This document shows positions 693 to 59,214 of a stretch of 64,000 nucleotides of DNA, piece by piece. The translations under genes were made by a program, and so were the position numbers. Below the pieces are notes generated by a model that had not been told where the DNA came from, made no database searches, and worked only from the letters and a program-made list of their open reading frames with translations. How positions within the stretch are numbered: position 1 is the stretch's first letter; every line of letters starts with the position of its first letter. The stretch comes from an uncultured virus (IMG/VR IMGVR_UViG_3300036766_001722). Taxonomy: Duplodnaviria; Heunggongvirae; Uroviricota; Caudoviricetes. The DNA lies in the IMG/VR virus record IMGVR_UViG_3300036766_001722. One strand, 5' to 3'.

Positions 693-1460
693 TCACCGCC
701 TCGCCGAAGTGCTGCCCGCCACAGACTCATACTCGCGACCATTCCACACTTGGAGATTGCTCCGTGAAACAGGCCCATTCGTGCTGCGTTTCGCTTCCCG
801 CAGTGCGTCGTCGTCGTCGTTTGCACAGATTTCAATCCAGCCGTACGGACCACGATAGCGGTAGCTAACCCAGCCTGCGCTGCACGGGGCACGCAGGTCG
901 CGGATGAGAATGAAGCGATTCGTTCCGGATGCATCGAGACCGCGCGCCCTCGCAGCATCGTAGATGCGATCGATCTGCGCGGGCGTGTAACCCTCCGCGT
1001 CGATTGTTACCTCTCGTCTCCTAGCTTTCACTTGATCCAGAATTTGATCCAGCCTCGTCTCACGACGACGACGCGTGTTTTTCTCCGCCGTCGCCGCCTT
1101 CCCCATCATCCAGAAGATGGCGATCGTGCCCAGCACGATGGCGACGCCGCCGACCCTCGTGATCGTCTCGGGGCTCGCGCTCGGGATCGTGGTCTGCCCG
1201 ACGCCGCCGCCGTGTCCTGCGAACGTGACGCGACCATCGACGCCCACGGTCGCGACGAGCGGCCACGCTCCCGTCAGCCGATGCCCTCGACCATCATCCT
1301 GCGCCGTGATCTCGACGGGCGGCGGCTTCCGCGCCCGTCGCGCCGCTGCAATCGCCGGACGGATCCCTTTGACGAGCCACGGCGCGAAGAGCAGGATGCC
1401 CCTCTGGCTGAGGCTGAACGTGGCCCTGTTCAGGTCGATGTCGTGGCCGTTGACGATCAT
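693..1460 (-). CDS. Putative virion membrane protein (GGVGQ, TM, KNTRRRR, C-terminal modules)
   Basis: 255 aa; TM VGGVAIVLGTIAIFWMM; coupled to neighbours. Confidence 0.8.
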   Translation of the reverse strand: MIVNGHDIDLNRATFSLSQRGILLFAPWLVKGIRPAIAAARRARKPPPVEITAQDDGRGHRLTGAWPLVATVGVDGRVTFAGHGGGVGQTTIPSASPETITRVGGVAIVLGTIAIFWMMGKAATAEKNTRRRRETRLDQILDQVKARRREVTIDAEGYTPAQIDRIYDAARARGLDASGTNRFILIRDLRAPCSAGWVSYRYRGPYGWIEICANDDDDALREAKRSTNGPVSRSNLQVWNGREYESVAGSTSARR

Positions 1461-2941: not shown

Positions 2942-3825
2942 GGCGCAGCCTTTCCAGCTCCCGTGAGCTTTCGGATCGCGGCCTTGCCCCAAGGCGTGAA
3001 CTTGAAGAAGAGGAAGAGACCGGCCGCGCTCCCGCCGATGATCGCCGTGTAGCGGATCGCGTCGCCGATGCCGCCGCCGACGACGTTCGTGAAGTTCGAC
3101 GCCGCCGCGTCGAACGGACCGAGCGCGAGATCATGCTGAAGTTGCGCGCGCTGCGCCGCGCTGCACGGAGGCGTCGCCGTACGGCAAATCGCCTCCGCTT
3201 GCTGCGACGCGTACTCGAGCCGCTTGCTGCTGTCGAGCCAGTAGCTGATCGCGGTGATCGCTGCGGCGCCCAAGAGAACGGCCACGACCACCGCCGCGAT
3301 GATCACCACGGTCTCGACCTGCCCAAGGCCGTGCGTGCCCGACGGCATGCTCGTGAGCGGCGTCATGTTCCGGAGCACCTCGGAGGCCGAGTTGAACATC
3401 GTGCGGGCCGGAAGAACCAGCGCCGACTGCGCCGCCTGGTTCGCGTCGCGTTCCGCGGCGGTATTCACGGTGAGCGTCGCGAGCTGCTTCGCGCGAACGA
3501 CAGCATCGGCGACCTGTCCGATGGTGCCGCCAACGAACTGCTTCAGCTCGTCCCGCGAGAGCGTCGTGAGGTTGCCGCCCTGCGTCTGGATCTTCTGCCG
3601 GAGGAGATCGAAGGCCGGCTTCGAGAACGGGGACTGCCCTCCGAACGTCGCGATGGCGCGCTGCGTGAGCGACTTGAGATCCGTGGAGAGATCCGCGATC
3701 CCGTTCACCGGCCCGGCCGGCCCAGGCGTCGTCGCCTGGCCGAGACCGGCCACGGGCGCACCCGTGCACGCACAGCCAAGCGGCTGCGTCCGACGACGAT
3801 GAGCGAGTGCGGACGTGTAGCTCAC
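2938..3825 (-). CDS. Putative virion membrane protein (MSY start, two GLGQ motifs, two hydrophobic helices)
   Basis: GTGA overlap at 3822-3825 gives MSYTSALAH...; AGLGQ and HGLGQ; hydrophobic VVIIAAVVVAVLLGAAAI and IIGGSAAGLFLFF. Confidence 0.8.
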   Translation of the reverse strand: MSYTSALAHRRRTQPLGCACTGAPVAGLGQATTPGPAGPVNGIADLSTDLKSLTQRAIATFGGQSPFSKPAFDLLRQKIQTQGGNLTTLSRDELKQFVGGTIGQVADAVVRAKQLATLTVNTAAERDANQAAQSALVLPARTMFNSASEVLRNMTPLTSMPSGTHGLGQVETVVIIAAVVVAVLLGAAAITAISYWLDSSKRLEYASQQAEAICRTATPPCSAAQRAQLQHDLALGPFDAAASNFTNVVGGGIGDAIRYTAIIGGSAAGLFLFFKFTPWGKAAIRKLTGAGKAAP

Positions 3826-4793: not shown

Positions 4794-4933
4794 TTCTTCC
4801 TCCGATTCCGACGAGGGCCCTTGCCCTTCTTGAGGTAGTTCGCGATCAGCATCCCCGTTCCCACGAACGGGAAGGCGATCAGCAACATGTACCCAGCCAT
4901 GAGCGGCGCGGGCAGTACGTCGAGGACAATCAC
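4790..4933 (-). CDS. Small membrane protein (47 aa, TM plus RRNRRKK)
   Basis: GTGA overlaps at both ends; MIVLDVLPAPLMAGYMLLIAFPFVGTGMLIANYLKKGKGPRRNRRKK. Confidence 0.65.
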   Translation of the reverse strand: MIVLDVLPAPLMAGYMLLIAFPFVGTGMLIANYLKKGKGPRRNRRKK

Positions 4934-6282
4934 CGACCACCCCGCGTGTTGCGCAGGTACCCCGGGCGCACGCCCGCGCGGCGAGCTGCCTTGCGTGCGA
5001 TGCTGTACGCGATCGCCGAAGCCTGCTCCGGCGACTTCCCGGCGCGACGCTCGATGCCGATGATCTTGCCCATCGTCTTGCGCGAGTAGCCGTGGGGGAT
5101 GGGGTTCTTCTGCGTCCGTCCACTGTACTTGCGCTTGCCGCCGCTGCTTCCGGACCAGTACTCGTTGCCGCGGCCGTCGATCACCAAGGCCGTGGTGACG
5201 CCCTTGTCGAGCCACATCTCCGCAGCGCCGACCGCATCGTCGAGCGCGTCCTTCTCCGTGTGGAACTCGTCCGAGTCCTCGAACACGAGATCATCATCAC
5301 GGAAGCCGGACAGCGTCTCGATCCACGACAGACCGGCCGGGTGACGCATCACGTGGATGACCATGTCGTCGAAGTTGGTCGCGTTGCGCCGAACGCGGCG
5401 CCCGTTCCGCACCGTCAGCTTCTGGCGCGGCTTCTTCTTGAGCATGAAGTACGCACCAGCCGCGACGAGCACACCGCCGCCGATGAGGAACGGCGCAATC
5501 GTGCCCCAGTCCGGTCCCCCGCCAGGCGTCGTCACGATCGTGCCGTCGGGCAGCACAGTCTGCGTGCCGCCGCCGCTAGCGTTCGGCGCCGACTGCAGCG
5601 CCTCCCACGTACCGGAGGAGAACGCGATCGAGTGCTTGTCGGAGGACACCGTGTACGTCGTGACCTGGCCGCCCAGGACGACGTATCGTCCGATTGCCGA
5701 GAGTGCGAGCCTGAGCGCGTTCGCGGTCGCCGTGCCGAACGTGTTGTCCGCGCCGCCCGCGAGTGTGTAGCCCTTGCGGAGGAGTAGCGACTGGACGTCC
5801 GACGTCGGAACCGACTGCCCGACAGTGCCTCCCGAGGTCCGTCCCGCGGGCGCCGTCCCCGACGGCGCCGACGTGGGCGTCCCAGGAGGCGCCGTGGTCG
5901 GCGCGGCGCCCGACGGCGCCGACTCGCCGGGCAGGAGCAACTTCGCGTCCGAGGCAACGCTGCGCTCGGCTGCGCGGATCGCAGTCGTCAGCGCCGCGCG
6001 GCGCTGCGTGGCGGTCCAGCCCGTCGCCGGGAGAAACACCACGAAGAGGTGTCCCATGTCCGACCATCCCGAGCGCACGTAGCCCGCCGGGAACCCAGCC
6101 GCCTGCATCGCGTTCACGATGGTGTTCGGCACGTACTGGGCCTGGACCGGCGTGATGTTGTACGGCGTCAGCGACGTCATGTACTCGCCTGCCGTGGCGC
6201 CGGTGCCGGCCTGATCGATCGCGCCGAGGCCATGACGACCAAAGAGACGACGGATGGGATGGGTGGTCGAGTAGTAGGTCAT
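4930..6282 (-). CDS. Putative virion membrane protein (MTYY, HGLGA, PGBD-like domain, TM, Asn-delimited modules)
   Basis: 450 aa; DVQSLLLRKGYTLAGGADNTFGTATANALR is PGBD-like; TM IAPFLIGGGVLVAAGAYFML; VRNG, RRNA, QKNP, LRNT. Confidence 0.8.
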   Translation of the reverse strand: MTYYSTTHPIRRLFGRHGLGAIDQAGTGATAGEYMTSLTPYNITPVQAQYVPNTIVNAMQAAGFPAGYVRSGWSDMGHLFVVFLPATGWTATQRRAALTTAIRAAERSVASDAKLLLPGESAPSGAAPTTAPPGTPTSAPSGTAPAGRTSGGTVGQSVPTSDVQSLLLRKGYTLAGGADNTFGTATANALRLALSAIGRYVVLGGQVTTYTVSSDKHSIAFSSGTWEALQSAPNASGGGTQTVLPDGTIVTTPGGGPDWGTIAPFLIGGGVLVAAGAYFMLKKKPRQKLTVRNGRRVRRNATNFDDMVIHVMRHPAGLSWIETLSGFRDDDLVFEDSDEFHTEKDALDDAVGAAEMWLDKGVTTALVIDGRGNEYWSGSSGGKRKYSGRTQKNPIPHGYSRKTMGKIIGIERRAGKSPEQASAIAYSIARKAARRAGVRPGYLRNTRGGR

Positions 6283-9642: not shown

Positions 9643-10127
9643 CAGAATTCGCTGACACAGCGGCCGTAATGCCGGTTGAAATGACTGCCGGGCGGGCACC
9701 CGTGGGAGTAATACTCCCGCGTGGCTGCGCTGTAGGGTTTTACGCGGGGGTCTACGCCGGGGTCTACCGCCGCGCGTCGCGTCCCCACCGGGAAGTAGTT
9801 ACCGCCGATGCCTGCGGCGCCGCCAGGCATCGGTGTCGGGCCACTGGGCGGCGACACCGTTACGCGAGCCGGAGCGGCCCGGCCACTGGCGACCAGTCCG
9901 TCGATCGCCCCGAGCACGTCGGCGACCTGTTCGACGCTCATGCCGGACATGAACAGCAGGTCGAGCCGACCCCCTCTGAGGACTCGATTCGCCGTCATCA
10001 TCGCGCCGGACGCGGCGATGCGTCCCGCAGGAGGCAGTACTCCAGCGCCTCCGCGTGCAGCCCAGTCACGCATCTGCATGTAGCGCCTGTAGGCCAGGTA
10101 CTTGATCGGGGTGTCCATCGACGGCAT
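9642..10127 (-). CDS. Hypothetical protein (GIGGNYF motif, C-terminal CPPG..C)
   Basis: TAATG overlap at 10125-10129 gives MPSMDTPIKYLAY... Confidence 0.7.
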   Translation of the reverse strand: MPSMDTPIKYLAYRRYMQMRDWAARGGAGVLPPAGRIAASGAMMTANRVLRGGRLDLLFMSGMSVEQVADVLGAIDGLVASGRAAPARVTVSPPSGPTPMPGGAAGIGGNYFPVGTRRAAVDPGVDPRVKPYSAATREYYSHGCPPGSHFNRHYGRCVSEF

Positions 10128-11533
10128 TACAGACCCACCTTCCTCGCGAACTTCTTCGCGTTCTTCTTGAGTGACTTCCGATTGCGCCAGAGCAGGAACG
10201 CTCCGAGGCCGACACCGCCAGCGATGAGCATGTTCTTGCCGGTGAACACTCCGTTTGCCGGGATCATGGCAGCGGGGACCGGCGCCGACGCGGTATCCTG
10301 CGCGACCTGTCCCATGCCCTGGACCGCGGTCGGCGATGCCTTGAGCGCGCTGATCTCCGTCGTGAGCGCGGCCTGGCTTGCCGCCACCGGCGCCACGATC
10401 TTCGTCGCCAGCTCCGTCACCGGCGTCTGCGGGGCCGCCGCCGCGAGGTTGCTGATCCGCCGGAGGCCTCCCTTGCCGCCGCGTCTCTGACGCGAGACGA
10501 GGTCGTCCATCGTCGCGTGCATCACGCAGTGAGCCATGACGTGGGCGATCGCCTTCTCGGGCGGATAGCCCATCGCGATCAGCTTCTGCGCCACGCGGCT
10601 GCACTTCTTCGACAAGCCCGGTCCGAGCGAGTCCATCGCGCGAGCGAGGAACTGGTCGCGCCACTGACGCTGCATCCCCTTGCTCTCCTTCACAAGAGCG
10701 TTGGCGATGTTCCACCCGAACGACTCGATCTTCGAGTTGCTCGGGGGCGGACGATACGCGTCGACGCGTGCCGAGAGCGCGACGCCGCCCGCGGACGGCT
10801 GCGTGACGCGCCATTCGTCCGCGGTCGTGTCCCACATCTCCGACTGCTGCACGCCCAGCTCGGCCTCGTCGGCGATGTACGCCGGGAGCGCGAACTGATG
10901 AGCGAAGATGCCGTCCTGGTTGCGCCAGGTGACGCCTTCCTCCTCGTCGTAGATGCCGTTGCCGATGACGTTCTGCGACGAGTCGTCGTACTCGTAGCTG
11001 TCACGGTCATAGACCGTGAGAGGATCGACGCCACGGTTCGACGTCTGCTGGTTCATCTGGGGGTTGCGCATCGGCCACGGCACCGGGGCCGTCACCTCCG
11101 GCTCGTAGAGCATCGTGTCCGTGGGCACCGACTTCACGGTGGTGGACTGGTCGCTGCCGAGGTTGACGTCGGTCTGCTGCTGAGAGAACGAACGATAGCC
11201 CTGGCCGCTGCCGGGCCCCCACGGGCTAGAACCGAAGTCGGTCTGCTCCATCCCTTCGCCGTCCTGCACAGCGAGGAGATCGAGCTGCGACATGTCGATG
11301 TCGGTAGCGGGGCCGGCTCCGTCGCCGGGACGCGACGGGGTGTCCTCCTGGATCTCGTCGTCAAGGATCGAAGAGCGACCCGGACCCTGGTAGTCCTCCA
11401 CGTCGAGGTTCGCGTTGCCACGCATCGTCGGGATGGCCATCGAGCCATCGCCGTCGAACAGCGTCGCCAGATCGGCGTCGTCCATCGAGGTATCCGTGTC
11501 CATGTCATCTCTTGCCATGTTGCGCCCCATCAC
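10127..11533 (-). CDS. Putative virion protein: acidic N-terminus, shared helical domain, GMGQ, C-terminal TM, KKN
   Basis: 468 aa; TM MLIAGGVGLGAFLLW followed by RNRKSLKKNAKK. Confidence 0.8.
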   Translation of the reverse strand: MMGRNMARDDMDTDTSMDDADLATLFDGDGSMAIPTMRGNANLDVEDYQGPGRSSILDDEIQEDTPSRPGDGAGPATDIDMSQLDLLAVQDGEGMEQTDFGSSPWGPGSGQGYRSFSQQQTDVNLGSDQSTTVKSVPTDTMLYEPEVTAPVPWPMRNPQMNQQTSNRGVDPLTVYDRDSYEYDDSSQNVIGNGIYDEEEGVTWRNQDGIFAHQFALPAYIADEAELGVQQSEMWDTTADEWRVTQPSAGGVALSARVDAYRPPPSNSKIESFGWNIANALVKESKGMQRQWRDQFLARAMDSLGPGLSKKCSRVAQKLIAMGYPPEKAIAHVMAHCVMHATMDDLVSRQRRGGKGGLRRISNLAAAAPQTPVTELATKIVAPVAASQAALTTEISALKASPTAVQGMGQVAQDTASAPVPAAMIPANGVFTGKNMLIAGGVGLGAFLLWRNRKSLKKNAKKFARKVGL

Positions 11534-12954: not shown

Positions 12955-13307
12955 CGACGGCTCCTGCTGTAGGAACGCTTCCCGCGTCTCTTGTTCGACT
13001 TGATCGGCATCGGCTTGCCGAACCCCTGAGCGAATGCCACGGCAGGCGTTACGATTGGAAAGAGCCCGCCGAGCAGTCCCCAGCCGATGGCGGCGCCGAC
13101 CGACCCGTTGTGGCGACGGTACCCGTGAAACGCACTGAGTCCGACACTGGCCATGTCCAGCACGTAGAAAAGGATACGGAGTGGACCCGTCGACGGCCCC
13201 TGAACGACCTGAATCGTCGTCGGAGTCTGGACGGGCGCGGGCGGCGTCGCCTGGCCAAGGTGCTCGAAGCCGAGACCAGCGGTGCTGTAGTAGGGAGCGG
13301 CCATCAT
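12951..13307 (-). CDS. Small membrane protein (AGLGF, HLGQ, two hydrophobic helices, KSNKRR)
   Basis: ATGA overlap at 13304-13307 gives MMAAPYYSTAGLG... Confidence 0.75.
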   Translation of the reverse strand: MMAAPYYSTAGLGFEHLGQATPPAPVQTPTTIQVVQGPSTGPLRILFYVLDMASVGLSAFHGYRRHNGSVGAAIGWGLLGGLFPIVTPAVAFAQGFGKPMPIKSNKRRGKRSYSRSRR

Positions 13308-13897
13308 TCCACCTTGAAGATCTTGTAGACCTTCACGCGAGCGAGCATCGACGCCGTACGACGACCGGCGACAGGATCGAGAACCCACCACACCTTCGAC
13401 CGAGGATCTTGCGCGCGAGCGAACACATGCGTGTACACCGGCGGCTGCCCCCACATCGGCGTCTCGAACCCCACCGTGATGAAGTCGACCGGCGCGCCGA
13501 TCGTGAGACAGCTCGCGCCAATGGCAGTCGAGTACCCATCGCAGTCAAGAAGCAGGGAGCCACGAGCCGCGTCATCGAGCATCCGGTCGGTCGTCCCGAG
13601 CATCTCGACGTGCACCGGGTCACGCGTGTAGCGGCCTGCGTTACCCCACCACTTACCGATCGCGACGACCTCCGACGTGTAGTCCTTGGGACGCACGTTG
13701 TTGATGATCTGCTCGGCGTGACGACGCACGCGGATCGAGCGCTCGCCGTCGAGCGCCGTCCCGACCATCTGGATCGGGTTCCGCTGACGACGCGCGAGCT
13801 GAATCATCACCGCCACGGTGTGATCGACGCCGCGATACGGCTCGACGGAGCCGGTCGCCTGCGTGTAGCTCGGGGCGTAGCGCTGCTGGCGGAGCAT
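13304..13897 (-). CDS. Transglutaminase-like cysteine protease, candidate virion maturation protease
   Basis: Cys-His-Asp order typical of the transglutaminase-like fold: LDCDGYS, YTHVFA, WVLDPV, plus RYTRDP upstream. Start at 13897 (GGAGG upstream) or 13942. Confidence 0.75.
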   Translation of the reverse strand: MLRQQRYAPSYTQATGSVEPYRGVDHTVAVMIQLARRQRNPIQMVGTALDGERSIRVRRHAEQIINNVRPKDYTSEVVAIGKWWGNAGRYTRDPVHVEMLGTTDRMLDDAARGSLLLDCDGYSTAIGASCLTIGAPVDFITVGFETPMWGQPPVYTHVFARAQDPRSKVWWVLDPVAGRRTASMLARVKVYKIFKVE

Positions 13898-13967
13898 GTC
13901 TTTCGACCGCTCCTCCAAGCGCCCGACGAGAGCATCGCACACGGATACCTACACGTGCAAGGGCTCG

Positions 13968-15239
13968 TTCAGACGGATAGTGGGTCAGTCTAAGTGAATC
14001 GTTCGTCAGTCCGGTCGTCCAATCGCGTCACAGGTACCGTGGTCCGCACGTTCCGCTACCCACTGCACCCGACCAAGGCCCAGGAAGCCATCCTGGAGTC
14101 CTGGCTCAGGGCGTGCTGCGCGCTCTATAACGCCGCCCTCGAACACCGGCAGGGTGCCTGGCATTACGAGAAAGTGCAGCGACAGGCTGCTGAGGACCTC
14201 GGTGTCGAGCGCAGGCCTGGCAAGATGCCATCGCGATACGACCAGTTCGTAGAGCTGACGACTGTGCGCGCGTCCGATACTGTCATTGACAGTGTTCCGG
14301 TGACCGTGCTGCGTTCCGCGCTCGGTCGTCTCGACGAAGCGATGAAGTCGTTCTTCCGTCGCTGCAAGTCTCGTGAGAAGCCCGGCTACCCGCGCTTCCG
14401 TAGTCGTCACCGCTACGATTCGTTCGGCGTGGGCCGCGTGGCGATCGACATCGACGGCAAGCGTGGCGAGGTCCGCGTCCCGAAGCTCGGCCCGGTGCGC
14501 TTCAAGGCCTACCGTCCGCTGAAGGGCGCCGTCCGTGATGTGACGATCAAGCGCACGGCGAAGGGCTGGCAGGTCGCCATCGTGTGCGACCTGGGCGCCG
14601 CGCCCGAGAAGCAGGCGGCGGTGCGCAACCGGGTCGGCATCGACCTCGGCCTCACGTCGTTCGCCGCGCTCAGCGACGGCACGCTCGTCGAGAACCCCCG
14701 CCACTACCGCCGCGCCGAAGAGCGGCTAGTCACCGAGCAGCAGGTGTTGTCCCGCAAGAGGCGCGGTAGCAAATCGCGCCACAAGCAGCGCAACGTCGTC
14801 GCACGAGCGCACGAGCATGTCCGCAACCAGCGGCTGGACTTCCACCGGAAGCTCGCGGTGCTGCTGTTCGCGAGGTACGACCTCGTGGCGTACGAAGATC
14901 TGAACGTCCGCGGAATGGTCCGTGGGCGGATGGCGAAGTCGATTCACGATGCCGGGTGGGCGCAGTTCATCCGGTGCCTCCAAGCCAAAGCGGAAGAAGC
15001 TGGGCGATGGGCGGTGCCGGTAGATCCACGCGGTACGAGTCAACGATGCAGCGCATGCGGCTGCACGGTGAGCAAGGACTTGAGCGTCCGGGTTCACGCG
15101 TGCCCGTGTGGCTACGTCGAGGACCGTGACGTGAACGCGGCGAAGAATGTTCTGGCGCTCGGTAGGAGCGCGGTACCGATGCTCACGGCAAGCGTGAGCT
15201 AGGATCGGAGGGTCAGAGTGACCCACTGCCTTCAGACGG
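13968..15239 (+). mobile_element. TnpB-only (IS1341-like) element, antisense within the structural operon; ends approximate
   Basis: No tnpA seen; hairpin GGGTCA-gag-TGACCC at 15210-15224 after the ORF; TTCAGACGG at both 13968 and 15231. Confidence 0.6.
13994..15202 (+). CDS. tnpB: RNA-guided endonuclease TnpB (IS200/IS605 family), apparently intact
   Basis: N-terminal RTFRYPLHPT...LYNAAL; RuvC motifs GIDLG, YEDL, DRDVNAAKN; zinc ribbon CSACG...CPCG. Confidence 0.95.
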   Translation: MNRSSVRSSNRVTGTVVRTFRYPLHPTKAQEAILESWLRACCALYNAALEHRQGAWHYEKVQRQAAEDLGVERRPGKMPSRYDQFVELTTVRASDTVIDSVPVTVLRSALGRLDEAMKSFFRRCKSREKPGYPRFRSRHRYDSFGVGRVAIDIDGKRGEVRVPKLGPVRFKAYRPLKGAVRDVTIKRTAKGWQVAIVCDLGAAPEKQAAVRNRVGIDLGLTSFAALSDGTLVENPRHYRRAEERLVTEQQVLSRKRRGSKSRHKQRNVVARAHEHVRNQRLDFHRKLAVLLFARYDLVAYEDLNVRGMVRGRMAKSIHDAGWAQFIRCLQAKAEEAGRWAVPVDPRGTSQRCSACGCTVSKDLSVRVHACPCGYVEDRDVNAAKNVLALGRSAVPMLTASVS

Positions 15240-36084: not shown

Positions 36085-39000
36085 ATGCCTGCTGACAACC
36101 GGATCTGGATGCCGTTCCCCGACGGCACCTCCTGGACGCGTCAGCCCGGGCCGCACGGAGACTTCCTGCATGTCTCCGTGATCGGCGTCGGGCCATCCGT
36201 GGACCGCCCGGCGTCCGTGCCACAGCGCATCGAGCCTCAGACCGCACAGCCCGTCTGCCGGTTCCCCCTGCACAACTTCCAGAACGAAGCCGTGCTCGCG
36301 TGCGAGAAGATGTACATCGAGAAGAGCAGCCGTGCGCCACTCGTCGTCCTTCCGACGGGATGCCACCGCGCCGGACAACACCTGCTGATGTACGACGGGT
36401 CCACCAAGGCCGTCGAAGACGTCGTCTCTGGCGATATGCTCATGGGCCCCGACTCGTCTCCCCGCACCGTCCTTTCGCTGTGCCGGGGGCACGGGCACAT
36501 GGTGACGATCAAGCCCGTGAAGGGCGACCCGTGGACGGTCAACGAAGATCACATCCTGACAATCGTGCTCACTCCTGACAGCGACTCACCGGCATCCGTG
36601 CACGACATCGCGATCAGAGACTACGAACACGAGACGAAGACATTTCGGCACCGTGCAAAGCTGTTTCGCCCGGCCGTCGTTCATTTCCCTCCGCTAAACT
36701 CGCCCCCGCTCGATCCGTACTTTTTGGGTCTGTACCTGGCGGATGGCACGCTGGCGGTGCCCCAGGTCGCAGTCAGTAAGCCTGACGCCGAAGTCCGCCA
36801 GGAGTGCGAACGCCAAGCCTCCCTCTATGGGATGTCCGTACGCCAAACCATATCGCCTCGCGGCGGCTGCCCCACCTGGCATATCCGTGTTCGGCGCGGA
36901 TCCGGCCGCAACCCGATTCTTGACATTCTTCGCAACCTCAACCTGATGCCGTGCGCAAGCGAAGCGCGATTCGTACCGGACTGCTATCGCCTTGGTTCTG
37001 TCACGACGCGCAGCTCATGCCTCGCGGGCATTCTCGATGGAGACGGCCATCTCAGTGGCGGTGGATACGACTTCATCTCCAAGTCGCACCGCCTAGCCAC
37101 GGACGTGACCTTTCTTGCTCGCAGCCTTGGCTACGCCGCTTTCATGTCTGCCTGCATCAAGCACTGCCAAAACAGCTTCACCGGCTCTTACTGGCGCGTA
37201 TCCATTAGCGGCGACCTGTCCAGGCTTCCGATGCGCATTCCGCGTAAGAAGGCCGCGCCTCGGCAACAGAAAAAGAACCACCTGCGCACAGGCTTCGCCG
37301 CTGAACGCACCGGAACCGTCGAGCCATATTTCGGCTTCACGCTCGATGGTGACGGACGTTACCTCCTCGGCGACTTCACGGTTACCCACAACACCGGAAA
37401 GACGCTCGTGGCCAGCGCGCTGATGCAGCGCTCGATGTCGTGGACGTTCCGTCCCTACAAGGACGCGCGCCAGTCGGGTGCGCTCTTCATCACGCATCGG
37501 CGCGAGCTGATCAAGCAGACCGTCGAGAAGGTCAGGCTCGTCGCCGAGGAGCTGCGTGTCGGCGTCGTGCAGGGAGAACGCAACGAGCTGGGCTGCCACG
37601 TCACCGTCGCAAGCATCTCGACGCTCTCTGCGGGGCGACGGCTCGAGGGCATCATCGATGCTGGCCCGTACCACTTGATCGTCATCGACGAGGCGCACCA
37701 CGCCGTCGCGAAGACCTGGCGCAAGGTGCTCGACCGGCTGCGTGCTGCCTTCCCCGAGGCGTTCCTCTTCGGCATGACCGCGACCCCTGGGCGAGCAGAC
37801 GGCACCGCTCTCGACCTCGTCTTCGACTCCGTCGCCTACGAGAAGTCCTTGGAGTGGGCGGTGAACCACGGGTACCTCGTGCCGCCGCGAGGGAAGGTCA
37901 TCCCGCTCAAGGTCGACCTCGACAAGGTAGAGAGCCAGAACGGCGACTTCGTCACGGCGAAGCTCAGCAAGGTCATGAACACCGAACCGGTGAACAAGGC
38001 CGTGGTCCGTGGCTGGCAGGAGTACGGCAACGACGCCAAGATGCTCGCGTTCTGCGTCGACGTCGCGCACTCCTACGCGCTCGCGCAGATGTTCTGCGAC
38101 GAGGGCTACCCCGCGATCGCTGTGGACGGCAAGACGAAGCCGGCCGCTCGCGAGAAAGCGCTCGCCGACTTCCGTAGCGGAGCTATCCGCATCTTGGCTA
38201 GTGCGGACCTGTTTTCTGAAGGCTATGACGACCCCTCCGCCGAAGGCATTCTTCTCGCTCGGCCCACGCTGTCACAGGGACTGCTGATTCAGCAGATCGG
38301 GCGCGGCCTCCGCAGGTTCCCCCTCAAGACCGAATGCCTCGTGCTCGACTGCGTGGGGAACACCTCGCGTCACCAGCTCGCGCAGCTCGCCACGATCGCC
38401 GGGCTCGATCCGGAGAAGAAGATCGCCGCCTCGTCCAGCGGGCAGGTCCCGCCGTGGATGTTGCCGCCTCAAGAGCCGGACCCGGTCGTCAACGACGCAA
38501 CCGTGGGCCCCGCACGCGACGTGCAGCTCATCGGTGCCCTCTCCGCAACGAAGTACCAGTGGCGGCAGACGACCGCTGGCTTCGCACTCCGCATCCCGCG
38601 CGTCGGGTACTACCTCGTCGTGCCCGACGACGATCTCCCGACGAAGGCCCACGTCCGCTTCTTCGACCGACGCAAGGATCGAGAGCACGGGACACCGCGG
38701 CACGTGATGGGCCCGATCGAGATGGAGATGGCCTACACGCTCGTAGAGGCCGATCTCGACCGACTTCGTCGCGCCACGAACGACTCGTACTGGACGAAAG
38801 ACCGGGGTGGACCGCAGGACGGCGAAGCCGTGCCGCTGCCCACCGGGCTCATCGACTTCGGAGACGGCGTCGACTTCGTGCCCGACGAGTGGCTGCTCAA
38901 GGAGCAGTCCTGGCACGACCAACCGGCAACTCCGAAGCAGATCGAACTGCTCCGCAAGCTCGGCGTAAAGATGAAGTCGATGCCCGACACGTCCGGCGAA

Positions 39001-39258
39001 GCGTCCGAGTTGATCGACGTGTTGCAGATCGAGAAGGACATCCGCAACAGCCAGCCAGCCACCGGGCCGCAGAAGTGGTACATCCGCCAGAATCGGCTGC
39101 CGCTCCCGAGAGGGACGTCGATCGAAACGGTCACGCGCTCCCAAGCGAGCCGGATGATCGTCAGCCACAAGATCCAAGCCCACAAGAAGCCGAAGCCGAC
39201 CGACATGGCGATGGAAGGCGAGCAGCTCTCCATGCCGGACATGGAGGAACCGTCATGA
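36085..39258 (+). CDS. Superfamily 2 (DEAH/ResIII-like) helicase containing an intein
   Basis: Walker A LPTG|TGKT split by the intein; IDEAHH, GMTATP, SEGYD, QQIGRGLR. Confidence 0.9.
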   Translation: MPADNRIWMPFPDGTSWTRQPGPHGDFLHVSVIGVGPSVDRPASVPQRIEPQTAQPVCRFPLHNFQNEAVLACEKMYIEKSSRAPLVVLPTGCHRAGQHLLMYDGSTKAVEDVVSGDMLMGPDSSPRTVLSLCRGHGHMVTIKPVKGDPWTVNEDHILTIVLTPDSDSPASVHDIAIRDYEHETKTFRHRAKLFRPAVVHFPPLNSPPLDPYFLGLYLADGTLAVPQVAVSKPDAEVRQECERQASLYGMSVRQTISPRGGCPTWHIRVRRGSGRNPILDILRNLNLMPCASEARFVPDCYRLGSVTTRSSCLAGILDGDGHLSGGGYDFISKSHRLATDVTFLARSLGYAAFMSACIKHCQNSFTGSYWRVSISGDLSRLPMRIPRKKAAPRQQKKNHLRTGFAAERTGTVEPYFGFTLDGDGRYLLGDFTVTHNTGKTLVASALMQRSMSWTFRPYKDARQSGALFITHRRELIKQTVEKVRLVAEELRVGVVQGERNELGCHVTVASISTLSAGRRLEGIIDAGPYHLIVIDEAHHAVAKTWRKVLDRLRAAFPEAFLFGMTATPGRADGTALDLVFDSVAYEKSLEWAVNHGYLVPPRGKVIPLKVDLDKVESQNGDFVTAKLSKVMNTEPVNKAVVRGWQEYGNDAKMLAFCVDVAHSYALAQMFCDEGYPAIAVDGKTKPAAREKALADFRSGAIRILASADLFSEGYDDPSAEGILLARPTLSQGLLIQQIGRGLRRFPLKTECLVLDCVGNTSRHQLAQLATIAGLDPEKKIAASSSGQVPPWMLPPQEPDPVVNDATVGPARDVQLIGALSATKYQWRQTTAGFALRIPRVGYYLVVPDDDLPTKAHVRFFDRRKDREHGTPRHVMGPIEMEMAYTLVEADLDRLRRATNDSYWTKDRGGPQDGEAVPLPTGLIDFGDGVDFVPDEWLLKEQSWHDQPATPKQIELLRKLGVKMKSMPDTSGEASELIDVLQIEKDIRNSQPATGPQKWYIRQNRLPLPRGTSIETVTRSQASRMIVSHKIQAHKKPKPTDMAMEGEQLSMPDMEEPS
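36361..37392 (+). mobile_element. Intein with LAGLIDADG homing endonuclease (344 aa)
   Basis: Starts CHRAGQHLLMYDG; block B VNEDHIL; LGLYLADG and LAGILDGDG; ends DFTVTHN followed by Thr. Confidence 0.92.
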
Positions 39259-53844: not shown

Positions 53845-54858
53845 ATGGGCACCGACCAGGACGACTCGCAACTGATGCTCGACCTGACCGAGAAGCCGTC
53901 TGAGCCGCCTGAGGCGCTCAAGAGACTCATGCGCGGCGAGCATCCGGCGGTCGAAGGATGGGACGACGCACCGTTCATCGGTGGCACCGACCCCGCGGTC
54001 CTCATCATGAACCACGTCCGAGCGAACCCCTCGACGCTGAGCCCGCGAGCCATCGAGGAGATGGCGTTCGGAGGCTCGACGACGCTGACCCGCATCACGA
54101 CGCAGAGGCTTCTCGACGATGGTCGCCTTCTGCTCGACGATCACCTGAAGCTTCGGGTGGCCGAGTGGCTTCGCATCACGGAGGGTTCCTTCCGGCTTGA
54201 CGATCATGACGCGGTGGGATGGCTACAGCGTCTCGCGCCCGAGAGCGTCGATCTCTGCGTCACCGATCCCGCATACGAGAGCCTCGAGAAGCATCGCGCT
54301 CGCGGGACGACCACGCGGCTCAAGATCAGCAAGGGCTCGTCCAACGAGTGGTTCGACATCTTCCCGAACACGCGCTTCCATGAGTTCTTCGTCGAGCTGT
54401 ACCGCGTGATGAAGAAGAACACGCACGGCTACGTGTTCTGCGACCAGGAGACGATGTTCTTCATCAAGCCGATCATCGAGGAGGTCGGCTTCAAGTTCTG
54501 GAAGCCGCTCGTGTGGCACAAGCTGGGCCGCCTGGGTCTTGGCTATCATTGGAGAGCAAAGTACGAATTCATCTTGTTCTTCGAGAAGGGCAAGCGGCGT
54601 CTTCTTGATCTTGGAAAGCCAGATGTCCTGGAAGAGCAGCGTGTCAACAACGCTTATCCGACCGAGAAGCCCGTTGAGCTGATCAAAAAACTGGTGGCGA
54701 ACAGCAGCCAGTCCGGAGAACTCGTGATCGATCCTTTCTTTGGGAGCGGCGCGACCGGCGACGCCGCGCTACAGCTCGGTCGTCGGTTCATGGGCACGGA
54801 TACGAGCAAAGTTGCGCATGAGCACGCGTCGCCCCGCCTGAAGGCGCGGGGGACATAG
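53845..54858 (+). CDS. N6-adenine/N4-cytosine DNA methyltransferase with N-terminal extension
   Basis: TDPAY, YPTEKP, DPFFGSG. Confidence 0.88.
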   Translation: MGTDQDDSQLMLDLTEKPSEPPEALKRLMRGEHPAVEGWDDAPFIGGTDPAVLIMNHVRANPSTLSPRAIEEMAFGGSTTLTRITTQRLLDDGRLLLDDHLKLRVAEWLRITEGSFRLDDHDAVGWLQRLAPESVDLCVTDPAYESLEKHRARGTTTRLKISKGSSNEWFDIFPNTRFHEFFVELYRVMKKNTHGYVFCDQETMFFIKPIIEEVGFKFWKPLVWHKLGRLGLGYHWRAKYEFILFFEKGKRRLLDLGKPDVLEEQRVNNAYPTEKPVELIKKLVANSSQSGELVIDPFFGSGATGDAALQLGRRFMGTDTSKVAHEHASPRLKARGT

Positions 54859-55356
54859 GTGCTGGCAGCGGATGACAAGAGGAGGCGTCGCCGGTCTCTC
54901 GCCGATCGCTTCGAGACGAAAGTAGACCGTTCGGGTGGCATCAATGCCTGCCACCTCTGGACCGCTGCCACAAACAAAGGCTACGGCGTCATCATGGTTT
55001 TTGTCGGGCGGCAGAAGCGTATGCGAACGGCGTCGCGTGTCGCGTGGGAGTTGGGACGTGGCACCATTCCGCGCGGTCTGTACGTCTGCCATTCGTGCGA
55101 CAACCGTCGGTGCGTCAATGTCCGGCACTTGTTTCTTGGGACGGCACAAGACAACACTCATGACGCTCTCCGAAAGCACAGGATGAAAGGAGGGGCGCGG
55201 GGACGCCTCGGTATTCTGTGTCGTCGCGTGGGCGAGATTCGTCGTCGTCTAAGGAGCGGAGAGCAGGGAACATCCATTGCCAAGTCAATGGGTGTGACGC
55301 CGTCAGCTATTTCGCAGGTGAAGCACGGCTCCTCATACCGGAGCATCCATGGCTGA
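54859..55356 (+). CDS. HNH homing endonuclease with C-terminal HTH
   Basis: CHLW...GYG...ASRVAW...VCHSCDNRRCVNVRHLFLGTAQDN. Confidence 0.88.
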   Translation: MLAADDKRRRRRSLADRFETKVDRSGGINACHLWTAATNKGYGVIMVFVGRQKRMRTASRVAWELGRGTIPRGLYVCHSCDNRRCVNVRHLFLGTAQDNTHDALRKHRMKGGARGRLGILCRRVGEIRRRLRSGEQGTSIAKSMGVTPSAISQVKHGSSYRSIHG

Positions 55357-55597
55357 CCGCGAACGTCACACCGACCCCGCCACGCCGTCGAGCAAGGGCA
55401 TGGCCGTGTGGCAGACCGTTCGTACGTGGATCGAGATGGACCGGAAGAACCGCGACGTGCTGACGTTCGTGGACGACGAGGGCAACGCGTGCGTCGAGGT
55501 ACGACAGGGCGGCAAGAAGATGCGCGACGCGATCAAGGACGACGAGAACCCGTGGACGACCGCTGCACGTGTCATTTCGGCGCTGGCCGTGATCTGA
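55349..55597 (+). CDS. Small hypothetical protein
   Basis: 82 aa; GGAG RBS. Confidence 0.6.
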   Translation: MADRERHTDPATPSSKGMAVWQTVRTWIEMDRKNRDVLTFVDDEGNACVEVRQGGKKMRDAIKDDENPWTTAARVISALAVI

Positions 55598-55604
55598 GGA
55601 ACGA

Positions 55605-56693
55605 GTGAACCGCGTTCTCACCGGCGATGCCATCGCCATGATGGCGACGCTTCCCGCGTCATCGATTGACGCCATCGCGACGGATCCTCCGTACGGGTTG
55701 AATCTCCTCGGCCACGACTGGGACCACGGCGTGCCTGGGGTTCCGTACTGGGAGGCCGCGTACCGCGTGGCGAAGCCCGGAGCGTTCCTCGCCGCGTTCG
55801 GCGGCACGCGCACGCATCACCGACTGATGTGCGCGATCGAGGACGCCGGGTGGGAGCTGCGTGACTGCTTGCAGTGGCTTTTCGCGGAAGGAATGCCGAA
55901 GGGCTCGACGATCAAGAACGGCCGCGGTACCACGCTCAAACCGGGGTACGAACCAATCATCCTGGCGCGGAAGCCTCCGACCGGTACGGTCGCCGTGAAT
56001 GCAGTGCTGCACGGTACGGGAGCGTTGAACATCGAGGCGTGTAGGATCGCGGTCGCGGCGAATGACGCGAAGGGCGGCCCTGGCTACAGCAAGGGGAGGA
56101 GCGGCCGGAAGGTCGGTGCGACGCGTCGTGATGCGGGCGCTCTCGAGCTGGCGACGAAGGCTGGCAATCCGCTCGACGGTAAGGGGCGCTGGCCGGCCAA
56201 CGTGCTGATCGATGATGAGGTCGCCGCCTTGCTCGACGCCCAGAGCGGCGTGCTGAAGAGCGGCAAGGTGACGAAGAAGTACGGCAAGCAGATGGAGAGC
56301 AGCGTGGCGTTCGGCGACAAGCGACGCGTGCTGCACCCGGGCATGGTGTTCTCGGACGAGGGAGGCGCCTCGCGTTTCTTCACCGTCGTCTCGTGGGGAG
56401 AGGACGAGCTGCGCTTCCGCTACGTGGGTAAGGCGTCGCGTTCCGAACGGACGCACGGAGGCAAGGTCGAGAACTGGCACCCGACCGTGAAGCCTCGGGC
56501 GTTGATGCGGTGGCTCTTGCGGCTGATCACGCCGCCTGGCGGCACGGTGCTCGATCCGTTCTGCGGGTCGGGCTCGACGCTCGTGGCAGCGCTGGATGAG
56601 GGCCTCGAGTACATCGGCATCGACAACGACCCGAGGTCGGCTAGAACGGCGCGGGCACGTCTCGCCGTCGCAGGAAGGGAGCAGCGAGCATGA
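55605..56693 (+). CDS. N6-adenine/N4-cytosine DNA methyltransferase
   Basis: TDPPY, GRWPAN, HPTVKP, DPFCGSGST. Confidence 0.9.
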   Translation: MNRVLTGDAIAMMATLPASSIDAIATDPPYGLNLLGHDWDHGVPGVPYWEAAYRVAKPGAFLAAFGGTRTHHRLMCAIEDAGWELRDCLQWLFAEGMPKGSTIKNGRGTTLKPGYEPIILARKPPTGTVAVNAVLHGTGALNIEACRIAVAANDAKGGPGYSKGRSGRKVGATRRDAGALELATKAGNPLDGKGRWPANVLIDDEVAALLDAQSGVLKSGKVTKKYGKQMESSVAFGDKRRVLHPGMVFSDEGGASRFFTVVSWGEDELRFRYVGKASRSERTHGGKVENWHPTVKPRALMRWLLRLITPPGGTVLDPFCGSGSTLVAALDEGLEYIGIDNDPRSARTARARLAVAGREQRA

Positions 56694-57097: not shown

Positions 57098-58936
57098 GTG
57101 GAGCCACCGACGCTCAACTCCTTCCCGCGGATGGCACCTCGGGATGCACTTCGAACGGCGCCGCGCTGGATGGCGTCCCTTGGGGTAGCCGACGTCGACG
57201 CGCTCGAAGAGCTGGGCCGCGGCACGTACGCGGTGGCGTACCGATTGCCTGACGGGCGTGTTTTGAAAGTCACGGCGGACTCGCGGTCGGCGCGGGCAGC
57301 GAAGGTTGTGCTGGAAGCTGGGCCTGCTCCGGGCATCGTTCACGTCTACGAGGTCAAGCAGCTCCCCGGTGGCACGCCCTTCTGGGCGACCGTCGAAGAA
57401 TACGTGCTCGACGCTGAGCACTTGCATGACGATGTCCGAAACGATCTCGATGCCGCCGTTGAAGCGGTGCAATGGCTGCTCGACCGTGAGTGGCTGAGCA
57501 AGCTCAAGGCGGCGGGTGCGTCTCGGGACGCAGCCGAACGTATCATTCGTCAATTCGCCTCCGCCCCTCCGCTTTGGGAAAACGAGGCACAGGCGGTAAG
57601 GTGGTTGATGGACATCGCCACCGGTCTCTCGTGGCTCAGGGATCACGGCGTGAGGGGTATGTCCGATTTCCATGAACACAACGTTGGCATCCGAGAGAAC
57701 GGAAGCGCAGTCATCTTCGATCTCAGCAGCGACCGCATTCGTTCATCAGGAGCGATCGATGTCGCAGCCAACCCGGCACGGAAGCCGTTCGATGTGCGCA
57801 AGGTCTTCGTCGCGCTCGGCCGGCCGCGCGAGGTCCCCTCGATGGAGGCCCTGGCGAAGGGCATCGAGGTCGAGATGGAGCACACCGACGACCCCGTCCT
57901 CGCCGGGAAGATCGCGCTCGACCACTTCCGAGAGTTCCCCGACTACTATGAGCGGCTTGAGGTTATGGAAGAGCGCGCGAAGAAGGGGCTTCCGCCGAAC
58001 GCCAGGCGTCAGCCTGGATGCGTGGCGCAACGTCAGCAGCACGGCGGACGGCCGTGGACATGCCGGGTATGTGGGAAGACGGCGTGCGATATCTGCGGTC
58101 TCCACTATTGGAGCGGCAAGGACTTCGAGCGCCGCCTGGCAACGTGCTCGGGAGCGTGCCGGAGGAAGGTTGACGAGGAGTTCCGAGCGAAGATTCGCGC
58201 CGGGAGACTCGAGGAGAATCCGAATTATTCGGTGCGTCCCGGCACGGTGCTCACGCTGCGGCGCTTGACCACGACCGAGAGCAGGGGCTCGGCGGAACGC
58301 GAAACGACGCGCACCGTGAAGCGTATCGTCCTCGAGGAGCAGGGCGTCTTCGCGGTGAGGTTCGCCGAGGGACCGGAGAGGGTCTTCCGTGTAGATCTTG
58401 AGGCGATGGAAGTGACGTCCGCCAGGCCTCCGCTTCGCTACGAGATCCTTGATGTGCGGGACGAAGGCGCCCTGCCGAACCCGAAGCTCGTGAACAACGG
58501 AAGCAAGATGCCGCGCGTAGCGGCGGCGTTTGATCGGTGCTTCGAGATCGTGCGGGTCCAGTTCCCTGACTTCGGCGAGATCGAACTGCATCAGGACGAG
58601 AAGGCCGCATCTGACAACGGTCATGGCAGCGAGCGCCAGTTCGGCTACTGCATGGACGGTGATCCCATCCGTATCGCGTTCGCGCGAAAGACGGAAGACC
58701 TCCCGGAGGTGAACATCAACGGGCTCGTCGCGCACGAGTTCGGGCACGCGCTCGACAACCGGTACGGCGATGGCCTGTCGGCGCTTCTCGACTGCGACTT
58801 GCCTCGTGGCGCCGAGCGCCGCGCCGATGCGATCGCGAAGGAAGTCTTCGGCAAGACGATCAAGTACGACACCCGCGACGTCCAGTGCGTCGCGTGCCGG
58901 GGCGAGGCGCCGCGTCCGAGGAGGCTCGGGGCGTGA
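57098..58936 (+). CDS. Multi-module protein: kinase-like, DUF5661-like, zinc finger, unknown and zincin-like peptidase modules
   Basis: LGRGTYAVAY, VLKVT, DFHEHNVG, IFDL; KGIEVEMEHT..IALDHF.E.PDYY; CRVC..CDIC..CSGAC; AHEFGH..ERRADAIA. Confidence 0.8.
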   Translation: MEPPTLNSFPRMAPRDALRTAPRWMASLGVADVDALEELGRGTYAVAYRLPDGRVLKVTADSRSARAAKVVLEAGPAPGIVHVYEVKQLPGGTPFWATVEEYVLDAEHLHDDVRNDLDAAVEAVQWLLDREWLSKLKAAGASRDAAERIIRQFASAPPLWENEAQAVRWLMDIATGLSWLRDHGVRGMSDFHEHNVGIRENGSAVIFDLSSDRIRSSGAIDVAANPARKPFDVRKVFVALGRPREVPSMEALAKGIEVEMEHTDDPVLAGKIALDHFREFPDYYERLEVMEERAKKGLPPNARRQPGCVAQRQQHGGRPWTCRVCGKTACDICGLHYWSGKDFERRLATCSGACRRKVDEEFRAKIRAGRLEENPNYSVRPGTVLTLRRLTTTESRGSAERETTRTVKRIVLEEQGVFAVRFAEGPERVFRVDLEAMEVTSARPPLRYEILDVRDEGALPNPKLVNNGSKMPRVAAAFDRCFEIVRVQFPDFGEIELHQDEKAASDNGHGSERQFGYCMDGDPIRIAFARKTEDLPEVNINGLVAHEFGHALDNRYGDGLSALLDCDLPRGAERRADAIAKEVFGKTIKYDTRDVQCVACRGEAPRPRRLGA

Positions 58937-59214
58937 CGAGGCTAGCCACATTCTGGGGCATCGTCGTGTCGATTTTTATGGAGCCGAGCGGCAAACATCA
59001 TCGTCCTCACTTCCATGCGTTCGTTGGGGGCGAATCGGCGATCATCGCGATCGATGATGGAAAAATCATCTCCGGCGATCTACCCATCACCGCTCGGCAC
59101 GCAGTGAGGGACTTCTGGAAGCTGAGGCGCGTGCAGTTGCAAGAGGCATGGGACACGATAGCGATGGGACGCGCTCCTCGGAGGATCGCTCCGCCAAAGA
59201 GGATGAGACGATGA
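58933..59214 (+). CDS. DUF4160-family protein (putative toxin)
   Basis: FWGIVVSIF...HHRPHFHA...I.I..G.I..G.LP......W. Confidence 0.75.
   Translation: MTRLATFWGIVVSIFMEPSGKHHRPHFHAFVGGESAIIAIDDGKIISGDLPITARHAVRDFWKLRRVQLQEAWDTIAMGRAPRRIAPPKRMRR

Follow-up and report, generated by a model that had tools for sequence, protein, structure and literature searches.

Polyvalent proteins are thought to be a main means by which phages and plasmids bring several anti-host activities to bear at once. According to Iyer et al. 2017 (PMC5512222, main text), they combine unrelated enzymatic domains in one phage chain, with a zincin-like metallopeptidase (MPTase) as a hub and ART, GNAT or ParB domains among its partners, and the embedded MPTase is proposed there to release the domains by autoproteolysis. 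This dismantling has so far been a proposal without a defined site. We analysed a stretch of 64,000 nucleotides (the window) from an uncultured virus of the Caudoviricetes (IMG/VR record IMGVR_UViG_3300036766_001722), in which the gene at positions 57098-58936 of the plus strand encodes a protein of this kind. It is a genuine open reading frame (ORF) of 612 residues plus stop, with a G+C content at third codon positions (GC3) of 0.78.

By the definition of Iyer et al., the product belongs to the polyvalent proteins of phages. Its single chain holds at least two disparate activities (a kinase, DUF5661 and a zincin, along with two more modules), and its repertoire is the typical one, shuffled around an MPTase hub. 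Such proteins are encoded by phages or conjugative elements, and the gene content of the window and the presence of relatives on IMG/VR contigs assign this one to a phage. From the N-terminus onwards, the architecture comprises a leader remnant, a kinase without its C-terminal lobe, DUF5661, a module rich in Cys, a small beta module and, at the C-terminus, a zincin metallopeptidase. The class is known, and the protein is a new member of it; not found in print were the signal at its seams and the link of this signal to an uncatalogued peptidase family.

Asn junctions at the module edges

Relatives were gathered by an exhaustive HMMER search, which returned 3196 proteins at E ≤0.001. The best 150 of these were analysed together with five from a word search (P0002 and P0005-P0008), 155 in all. 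They are representatives of 50% clusters, so that counts over them are not counts of independent events, and domain ends were projected from profile coordinates. A kinase-only word search returned three close relatives and a search for shorter proteins returned eight, mostly DUF5661 fragments; a seeding bias remained. The peptidase is present in 116 of the 155 relatives, at a C-terminal, middle or N-terminal position, the proteins being 78 to 1363 residues long, and Pfam detects DUF5661, ART-PolyVal, GNAT and weak ParB_N and ABC1/APH kinase matches in many orders around it.

Comparison of the peptidase-bearing relatives indicates that a junction of four residues, [L/M/V/I]-x-x-N, with P, G or A after it, links their modules. 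Five such junctions separate the modules of the query. Junction 1, V-A-A-N225-P (57761..57775, Asn at 57770), lies within the poorly modelled linker of residues 214-227. Junction 2, L-P-P-N301-A (57989..58003, Asn at 57998), stands on the C-side of DUF5661 and is the seam used in P0002. Junction 3, L-E-E-N374-P (58208..58222, Asn at 58217), precedes the mobile beta module, and junctions 4 and 5 occur together around a short spacer, L-P-N461-P-K-L-V-N-N467-G (58472..58501, Asn at 58478 and 58496), which is the short form of a spacer of the relatives. A sixth Asn motif, at N7 (57116-57118), aligns with the conserved leader junction ...GLxPN of the relatives. The query contains 16 Asn in total, eight of which are at module edges (N7, N225, N301, N374, N376, N461, N466 and N467).

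The full-length AlphaFold2 model, built from 119 sequences, has a mean predicted local distance difference test score (pLDDT) of 76, with the kinase, DUF5661 and the peptidase as confident blocks. The pLDDT falls below 50 at residues 214-227, 303-320, 334-339, 371-421 and 427-461. N225, N374 and N461 are inside these segments, N301 is two residues ahead of one of them, and N467 is five residues ahead of the first peptidase helix. Breakpoints of homology between the query and 154 relatives cluster at residues 226-232, 248-251, 294-312 and 457-472. The original prediction for this gene, drawn from the letters of the sequence, was of five modules with boundaries on Asn motifs, and ORF analysis, Pfam, Foldseek, AlphaFold2 and the sequence itself bear it out: each motif is within, or at most two residues from, a low-pLDDT linker, and the homology breakpoints agree. 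Relatives with other module combinations exist and break exactly at the Asn signals. Since the edges match the motifs and the relatives shuffle modules at these signals, neither displaced domain edges nor an invariant full-length protein was found.

The signal can be counted. Over the 116 peptidase-bearing proteins, the pattern [LIVM]..N[PGAS] was counted 300 times, where composition predicts 75.9 (3.95x), and the focal gene contains six against 1.0 expected. Replacing N by D, E, Q, S, T, K, R, H or G brings the ratio to 0.63-1.11, and the 39 comparison proteins without the peptidase show the junction pattern at 1.52x. In an unsupervised test, N[PGA] was found at most 10 residues from 248 of 620 BLAST-breakpoint peaks (107.5 expected), with D, S, Q, T, E and K as controls giving 0.58-1.47. 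Of the internal peptidase copies, 86 of 89 have an Asn at most 12 residues upstream of helix 1, as do 6 of the 16 copies located near an N-terminus; between -3 and +12 of the peptidase end, it is present in 41 of 42 internal copies. When the peptidase is present, 53 of 55 kinase ends carry N followed by P, G, A, S or T, and 14 of 16 DUF5661 domains have an N-type C-side. Up to six seams are found per protein, after four unrelated domain ends.

We anchored 186 unique boundary sites on the Asn alone. Position -3 is aliphatic in 167 of them (L in 107, M in 31, V in 19 and I in 10). Position -2 is most often A (80), K (32) or R (16), position -1 P (57) or A (47), and position +1 P (79), G (34), A (22), R (13), S (12) or T (10). 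An aliphatic residue at -3 precedes only 46 of 416 Asn in the cores of the kinase, DUF5661 and peptidase, against 423 of 804 outside the cores, the aliphatic background being 0.21. The motif is restricted to module edges.

Natural chain ends bear on the same position. Nineteen of the 116 proteins begin [M/V]-x-x-N (for example MRRNPKIV), where 1.5 are expected per position, and the position controls gave one protein with Asn at residue 3 and none at residue 5; the initiator therefore takes the aliphatic -3 place. Four of the 116 begin M-P-K-[I/L], with Met occupying the place of the Asn. The short leaders of the homologous genes in two related loci, L002 and L011, are bounded by upstream stop codons. 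At the other extremity, the last residue of terminal peptidase domains falls on profile position 149 or 150 in 64 of 65 cases (the query reads ...RRLGA), and internal copies have the Asn at +1 in 12 cases (...HLAKN) and at +8 or +9 in 27 (...HLPDEKAKLKAN). The C-terminus of the query is one residue short of the point where internal copies have their junction Asn. As a stop codon replaces the Asn at the chain end, and exactly three residues precede it at the start, these sequences identify Asn as the seam residue.

Many relatives contain, either N-terminally or between two modules, a spacer of about 22 residues (N-PKIVSLxP...AAAGLxP-N), of which the query has the short form LPN-PKLVN-NG. In the related loci examined, the long spacer is confined to the polyvalent gene. 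Of two complete related genomes, one has it once, again inside that gene, and in the other it was not found.

Among close relatives, the differences amount to entire modules. P0002, at 95% identity to the query, has neither the Cys-rich nor the beta module, with a join that reads exactly ...GLPPN|PKLVNN..., and P0003 has an ART domain and another module in place of DUF5661 and the Cys-rich module. Three relatives are on IMG/VR contigs of 139-171 kb with a high G+C content, and two related phages are rated 100% complete. The two seams fused in P0002 (57998 and 58478) have in common the 7-base string GCCGAAC in the window DNA, a microhomology that could have mediated the deletion.

Kinases without a peptidase end differently. 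The 60 kinase ends of this category come from 18 proteins, mostly giant multi-kinase proteins of 1000-2400 residues, and N-type ends represent 4 of the 60, compared with 44 of the hydrophobic-x-Glu type and 49 fitting the consensus P-P-V-L-E. Two to five truncated kinase copies were scored in each of these proteins (P0099, P0102, P0112-P0116, P0119-P0123, P0127, P0135, P0136, P0142, P0147 and P0153). Their other Pfam domains are cytidylyltransferase-like in most, a pyrophosphatase in three, and a 2'-5' RNA ligase and SLT in one each. Judged by their domains and repeated ends, the multi-kinase giants are a second polyvalent clade with another end motif. We take P-P-V-L-E to resemble the Glu-ending (hydrophobic-x-Glu) sites of T4-type prohead proteases, a likeness to which we give little weight, as the motif could equally be the structural start of a helix in this clade.

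The peptidase and the other modules

The peptidase domain covers residues 469-612 (58502..58933), with HEFGH at 58733-58747 and E573 at 58814-58816. H546, E547, H550, E573 and D577 are invariant in all 106 aligned peptidase domains, E573 being the third zinc ligand. Because HExxH and the Glu are kept in 106 of 106 domains, the peptidase is probably active. Further conserved features of the 106 domains are R513, Y590, R606-P607 and a C-terminal C-x-x-C region. The AlphaFold2 model of the domain (pLDDT 87.9) has helices at domain positions 33-49, 98-125 and 133-145 and strands at 56-60, 77-80 and 85-89, that is, one helix at the N-terminus, a sheet of three strands and two helices at the C-terminus, the arrangement of a zincin core. 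Its top structural neighbours are abylysin (Z 7.9, root-mean-square deviation 2.6 Å over 92 residues) and Spartan (Z 7.2), values below 8 being middling according to the tool's own note, and zinc peptidases or related zincin-like hydrolases form the majority of the top 50.

Sequence searches place the family less readily. Foldseek gave no significant match for the domain (best E 0.061, nothing at E 0.001 or better), the best hit of a sequence-profile search of the PDB was fragilysin at E 0.21, a scan of NCBIfam gave no match, and no Pfam model reached its cut-off, MPTase-PolyVal (PF18818) included. With the domain alone and E ≤10, Pfam returned sub-threshold eCIS_core (E 0.023), Peptidase_M90 and Peptidase_M57. 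The single Pfam peptidase match among the 155 relatives is a borderline one, to Peptidase_M57 in P0009 (E 2e-4; 21.6 bits, where the cut-off is 21). The minimal zincins (abylysin, selecase and jannalysin; SprT/Spartan and Wss1) resemble the query domain by their HExxH helix followed by a Glu-bearing helix and include its best structural neighbours, but there is no significant sequence or Foldseek match to them, and the query family has extra conserved features. In the phage-type MPTase clade, as described in the main text of PMC5512222, a His ends strand 2 and an Asp stands three residues past HExxH. The query has E-L-H498 and H-A-L-D553, both in columns that are less than 75% conserved in the 106 domains.

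At the other extremity of the chain, the GTG at 57098 is likely the true start of the gene, because 15 relatives have a leader and N-terminal helix with which residues 1-24 align, and a stop codon is found two codons upstream. These residues form the leader remnant (57098..57169). The database copy of the protein, P0001, begins at M25 (57170); its deposited start is probably misplaced 72 bases downstream, leaving out 57098-57169.

The protein kinase without C-terminal lobe (residues 25-213, 57170..57736) was delimited with Foldseek, alignment and AlphaFold2. In Foldseek it matches protein kinases, PknB among them, with probability 1.00 (best E 7.7e-5), and its PHROG match is weak (E 0.003). 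All 107 aligned kinase segments keep K57, D190, N195 and D208, and nearly all keep G40 and G42; at the DFG-equivalent position the query has D-L-S, and D-x-G is found in 103 of the 107. The model has a pLDDT of 83-96 over most of the segment, with one 10-residue block at 70. The domain ends about 17 residues past D208 according to AlphaFold2, and no structure is predicted from residue 213 to N225. Retention of the catalytic residues with loss of the C-terminal subdomain is what Iyer et al. describe for the polyvalent-type kinase (PMC5512222, main text).

The DUF5661 helical domain occupies residues 228-302 (57779..58003), within which Pfam PF18905 matches residues 249-293 at E 1.7e-13 (51.1 bits against a curated cut-off of 27). 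Its model has four helices, and seven of its eight 10-residue blocks average a pLDDT of 91-96. The Cys-rich module (residues 303-370, 58004..58207) was delimited by its seven Cys (C308, C322, C325, C330, C333, C350 and C354, hence between residues 308 and 354), which include two C-x-x-C pairs; AlphaFold2 gives it two helices at a pLDDT of 46-70. It had been called a zinc finger in the original prediction. The Cys are there, and the module probably binds zinc, which is plausible but unproven; no family match was obtained, all zinc-finger hits being sub-threshold at E 0.1 or worse. The small beta-rich module (residues 376-457, 58223..58468) has five strands of low pLDDT, and a search of the Atlas with it returned nothing but small beta-barrel look-alikes below the bar. 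It recurs in P0134 (E 2e-18, after V-I-R-N-P) and in P0027 (E 9e-6, after P-M-A-S-N-G), a distribution by which it is mobile between proteins.

The modules also differ in codon usage. GC3 is 0.71 in the kinase (201 codons), 0.89 in DUF5661 (76 codons), 0.74 in the Cys-rich module, 0.80 in the beta module and 0.85 in the peptidase, which agrees with the earlier impression that the kinase segment uses more A/T-ending codons than the module after it. The gap between kinase and DUF5661, about 3.7 standard errors in a post-hoc comparison, points weakly to separate module origins.

Proposed junction processing and its alternatives

A fixed tetrapeptide, laid out like the P4 to P1 positions of a protease substrate, restricted to seams and kept at natural termini, is best explained as a processing site, and we see an even chance that the junctions are such sites, probably cut after the Asn by the protein's own peptidase. 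In the scheme that we infer, the chain would be cut at every junction, most probably directly after the Asn, a position favoured by the natural chain ends. The cutting enzyme would most probably be the peptidase domain of the protein itself, acting in cis or in trans. The embedded zincin is the simplest candidate, since the junction type tracks the peptidase, the spacer is private to the gene, and self-release is what Iyer et al. proposed. Cleavage would free the kinase and the other modules as separate proteins acting on the host. By the established rule the initiator Met would be removed, and modules that begin M-P-K... would then have the same N-terminus as modules cleaved at N|PK...; terminal and internal copies of the peptidase would differ by one residue. 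By analogy with the rest of its class, the polyvalent protein may be packaged, travel in the virion and be injected.

A more specific form of this scheme, which we put forward tentatively, would make the undescribed zincin family a private Asn-directed processing enzyme. It would recognise aliphatic-x-x-Asn, cut before Pro, Gly or Ala, dismantle multi-effector polyproteins and excise the Asn-bounded spacer of about 22 residues, PKIVSL...AAGLxPN, as a possible targeting or packaging tag. If true, polyvalent proteins would have a defined cleavage code for the first time, together with a metalloprotease that cuts Asn-Pro bonds.

Several points weigh against processing by the embedded peptidase. 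The case for cleavage is built throughout on sequence comparison, and the link between junction type and peptidase on essentially two clades in a query-seeded data set. Among DUF5661 ends without a peptidase, 7 of 24 are N-type; the enzyme is therefore maybe encoded elsewhere, or these records are fragments. In the peptidase model, the 30 residues that bear the junction have a pLDDT of 52-60 and are not placed at the active site, and a complex prediction of the peptidase with Zn and the 40-residue kinase-to-DUF5661 linker, run without controls, scored 0.00, which counts neither for nor against. Bonds before Pro are poor substrates for most endopeptidases, and Pro is the commonest +1 residue (79 of the 186 sites). 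Zincins often select the residue that follows the cut, which makes cleavage ahead of the aliphatic -3 residue a real alternative; a cut after the Pro, as Pro-Pro endopeptidases make, is possible too. The gene sits among methylase, HNH and NUDIX genes, away from recognisable head genes, and since none of the latter adjoins it, packaging is unsupported. Moreover, N4 virion RNA polymerase, ArdC and TraC1 (MPTase-bearing) are delivered uncut according to the main text of PMC5512222.

The junctions might instead be cut by another protease, either a phage prohead or head-maturation enzyme or one of the host, with the embedded peptidase acting as an effector against host proteins. The N-type DUF5661 ends of peptidase-less proteins would fit such an enzyme. 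So would the P-P-V-L-E ends of the peptidase-less clade, if their presumed likeness to T4-type prohead sites is real, and the short motif-ending leaders, which we take to be reminiscent of the capsid-targeting peptides of T4 internal proteins. Against it, the idea in the original prediction that structural genes about 45 kb away use the same Asn code found no support: the 57 other candidate ORFs of the window contain 38 junction patterns against 24.8 expected, a 1.5x ratio as in unrelated proteins. The long spacer is confined to the polyvalent gene in the one complete related genome that has it, Pfam and PHROG scans identified no prohead protease in the window, and the junction type follows the peptidase (53 of 55 kinase ends with it, 4 of 60 without). 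We therefore regard a foreign protease as unlikely, even though Iyer et al. do allow the MPTase to be an effector (PMC5512222, main text).

A rather unlikely possibility is that the junctions are not cut at all and serve as flexible joints or as docking or packaging tags, kept as recombination seams for module swapping. Whole-module differences between close relatives with joins at the motif, as between P0001 and P0002 or with the ART domain of P0003, are what this predicts, and the 7-base stretch common to both seams of the P0002 deletion is compatible with it. The main text of PMC5512222 likewise suggests cassette recombination for kinase-bearing polyvalent loci and describes some polyvalent proteins as delivered uncut. 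However, seven bases are too short for homologous exchange, and what is conserved in the junction is the amino-acid sequence, in proteins whose identity is below 50%. A passive linker leaves unexplained the fixed aliphatic residue at -3, the starts exactly three residues ahead of the Asn and the stops just ahead of it.

Cleavage might also occur without any protease, the junction Asn cyclising to a succinimide and breaking the following bond in the manner of an asparagine peptide lyase, as has been proposed for the VENN motif of CdiA. The Asn is the sole near-invariant residue of the junction, and the natural chain ends indicate a break directly after it, which is where asparagine peptide lyases cut relative to their own Asn (PMC3207474). 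CdiA toxins are freed after V-E-N-N, likely by this mechanism (bioRxiv 10.64898/2026.05.07.723447), and V-E-N-N fits aliphatic-x-x-N. Known lyases, as far as they are described in PMC3207474, nevertheless require a folded catalytic setting and an acidic partner residue, whereas the junction Asn follows four unrelated domain ends in low-confidence linkers and is found even three residues from an initiator Met. Pfam matched no pretoxin-VENN domain in the query or in the 155 relatives scanned, and we consider the mechanism quite improbable here. As for chance or the usual composition of linkers, loops commonly contain Asn, Pro and Gly, and unrelated proteins do show a 1.5x excess of the pattern. 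Against the 3.95x excess of the family, the flat ratios of the nine control residues, the occupancies at peptidase and kinase ends and the contrast in aliphatic -3 residues between boundary sites and core Asn, this explanation is scarcely credible.

A 2A-like ribosome-skipping peptide was considered separately and rejected. The 2A-like consensus is ...N-P-G-P, and the residue after N-P in the query is A, N or K, with no instance of G-P; the family also has G or A at +1.

Genomic setting and known systems

The window appears to be part of a large, poorly annotated phage, the contig of P0001 being 164,952 bases long. Its genes include two DNA methylases, an HNH endonuclease, NUDIX, an AEP primase, an exonuclease, an intein-bearing helicase and a TnpB-like gene. 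Directly upstream of the polyvalent gene, at 53845-56693 (+), two N6/N4 DNA methylase genes flank the HNH endonuclease gene, and in L002 a methylase likewise lies upstream of the homologous gene. Downstream, a DUF4160 ORF taken from its first possible start (58885-59214, +) shares 52 bases with the end of the polyvalent gene; the true start of this ORF probably lies further downstream. The helicase (36085-39258, +; ResIII/DEAD, 1057 residues) is split at about residues 93-352 by Hint and LAGLIDADG domains, which constitute an intein. The IS605 OrfB/TnpB-like gene at 13994-15202 (+), with OrfB_IS605, Cas12f1-like TNB and HTH domains, is on the opposite strand within a block of minus-strand ORFs.

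Between 1 and 20 kb, the ORFs gave no Pfam or PHROG hits except to one small family, and a structural role for them was not confirmed. One of them, a putative virion-side ORF at 10127-11533 (-), encodes a conserved protein of 468-483 residues with 48-50% identity to those of two related complete phages (L015 1483-2934 and L016 1495-2934). Its N-terminus is acidic, a C-terminal hydrophobic segment precedes a basic tail, and there is no family match. Its junction-like sites M-R-G-N-A and L-K-K-N-A are not kept as junctions in the two related phages, which further speaks against a common Asn code. A basic stretch followed by [K/R]-N-P-[I/G] (RTQKNPI, RTRRNPG, RRQRNPI, GSGRNPI) was noted at residue 393 of 4930-6282 (-), 295 of 1460-2992 (-), 55 of 13304-13942 (-) and 276 of 36085-39258 (+). 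In 4930-6282, the 43 residues directly after this stretch match phrog_2423, a small stand-alone phage family, at E 6e-8. Such stretches may mark further fused modules with an Asn-Pro seam, in numbers too small to tell.

A search of the literature for Asn-specific prohead cleavage, proteomics of polyvalent proteins and metallopeptidases of phage polyproteins found no description of the junction, and no paper mentioning DUF5661 was found. Within the main text of PMC5512222, a term search found no junction or cleavage motif. The present clade differs from the polyvalent proteins described there in that its peptidase matches no Pfam model, MPTase-PolyVal included. The kinase type of that study is mainly from (pro)phages of Verrucomicrobia-Chlamydia and Bacteroidetes, whereas the relatives found here are on high-GC contigs of 139-171 kb. 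With a countable signal, the proposal that polyvalent proteins are dismantled would become experimentally simple. The junction would give a rule for module boundaries and mature termini in unannotated metagenomic phage proteins, and a protease with an unusual Asn/Pro specificity might emerge.

Processed head proteins are comparable as precursors that are trimmed at short motifs and delivered with the DNA. In T4, leader peptides of the internal proteins and Alt are removed by the prohead protease, at known sites that end in Glu. The sites described here end in Asn instead, and the query gene lies outside any recognisable block of head genes. P1 DdrB and DarA are likewise processed phage head proteins (PMC5512222, main text). 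The Pro-Pro endopeptidases, PPEP-1 and its relatives, are described as zinc metalloproteases that accept Pro at the scissile bond. The preferred PPEP site contains Asn-Pro-Pro. No sequence relation or fold-specific relation to them is detectable, however, and the +1 Pro is replaceable here by Gly or Ala. An analogy with the polyproteins of RNA viruses infecting eukaryotes, in which an embedded protease frees functionally different domains, was drawn by Iyer et al. (PMC5512222, main text). The peptidase classes and domains are unrelated, and here the virus is a DNA virus and its host a bacterium.

The motifs of CdiA and other polymorphic toxins, VENN and (Q/E)LYN, come close in form, as short Asn-ending motifs at the seam between conserved and swappable parts of a conflict protein (PMC5422565), and cleavage after the Asn has been reported or proposed for them (PMC5422565; bioRxiv 10.64898/2026.05.07.723447). 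Each CdiA protein has one seam, after a dedicated pretoxin domain, whereas up to six are found here, after unrelated domains. The parallel hints at a common solution among conflict proteins.

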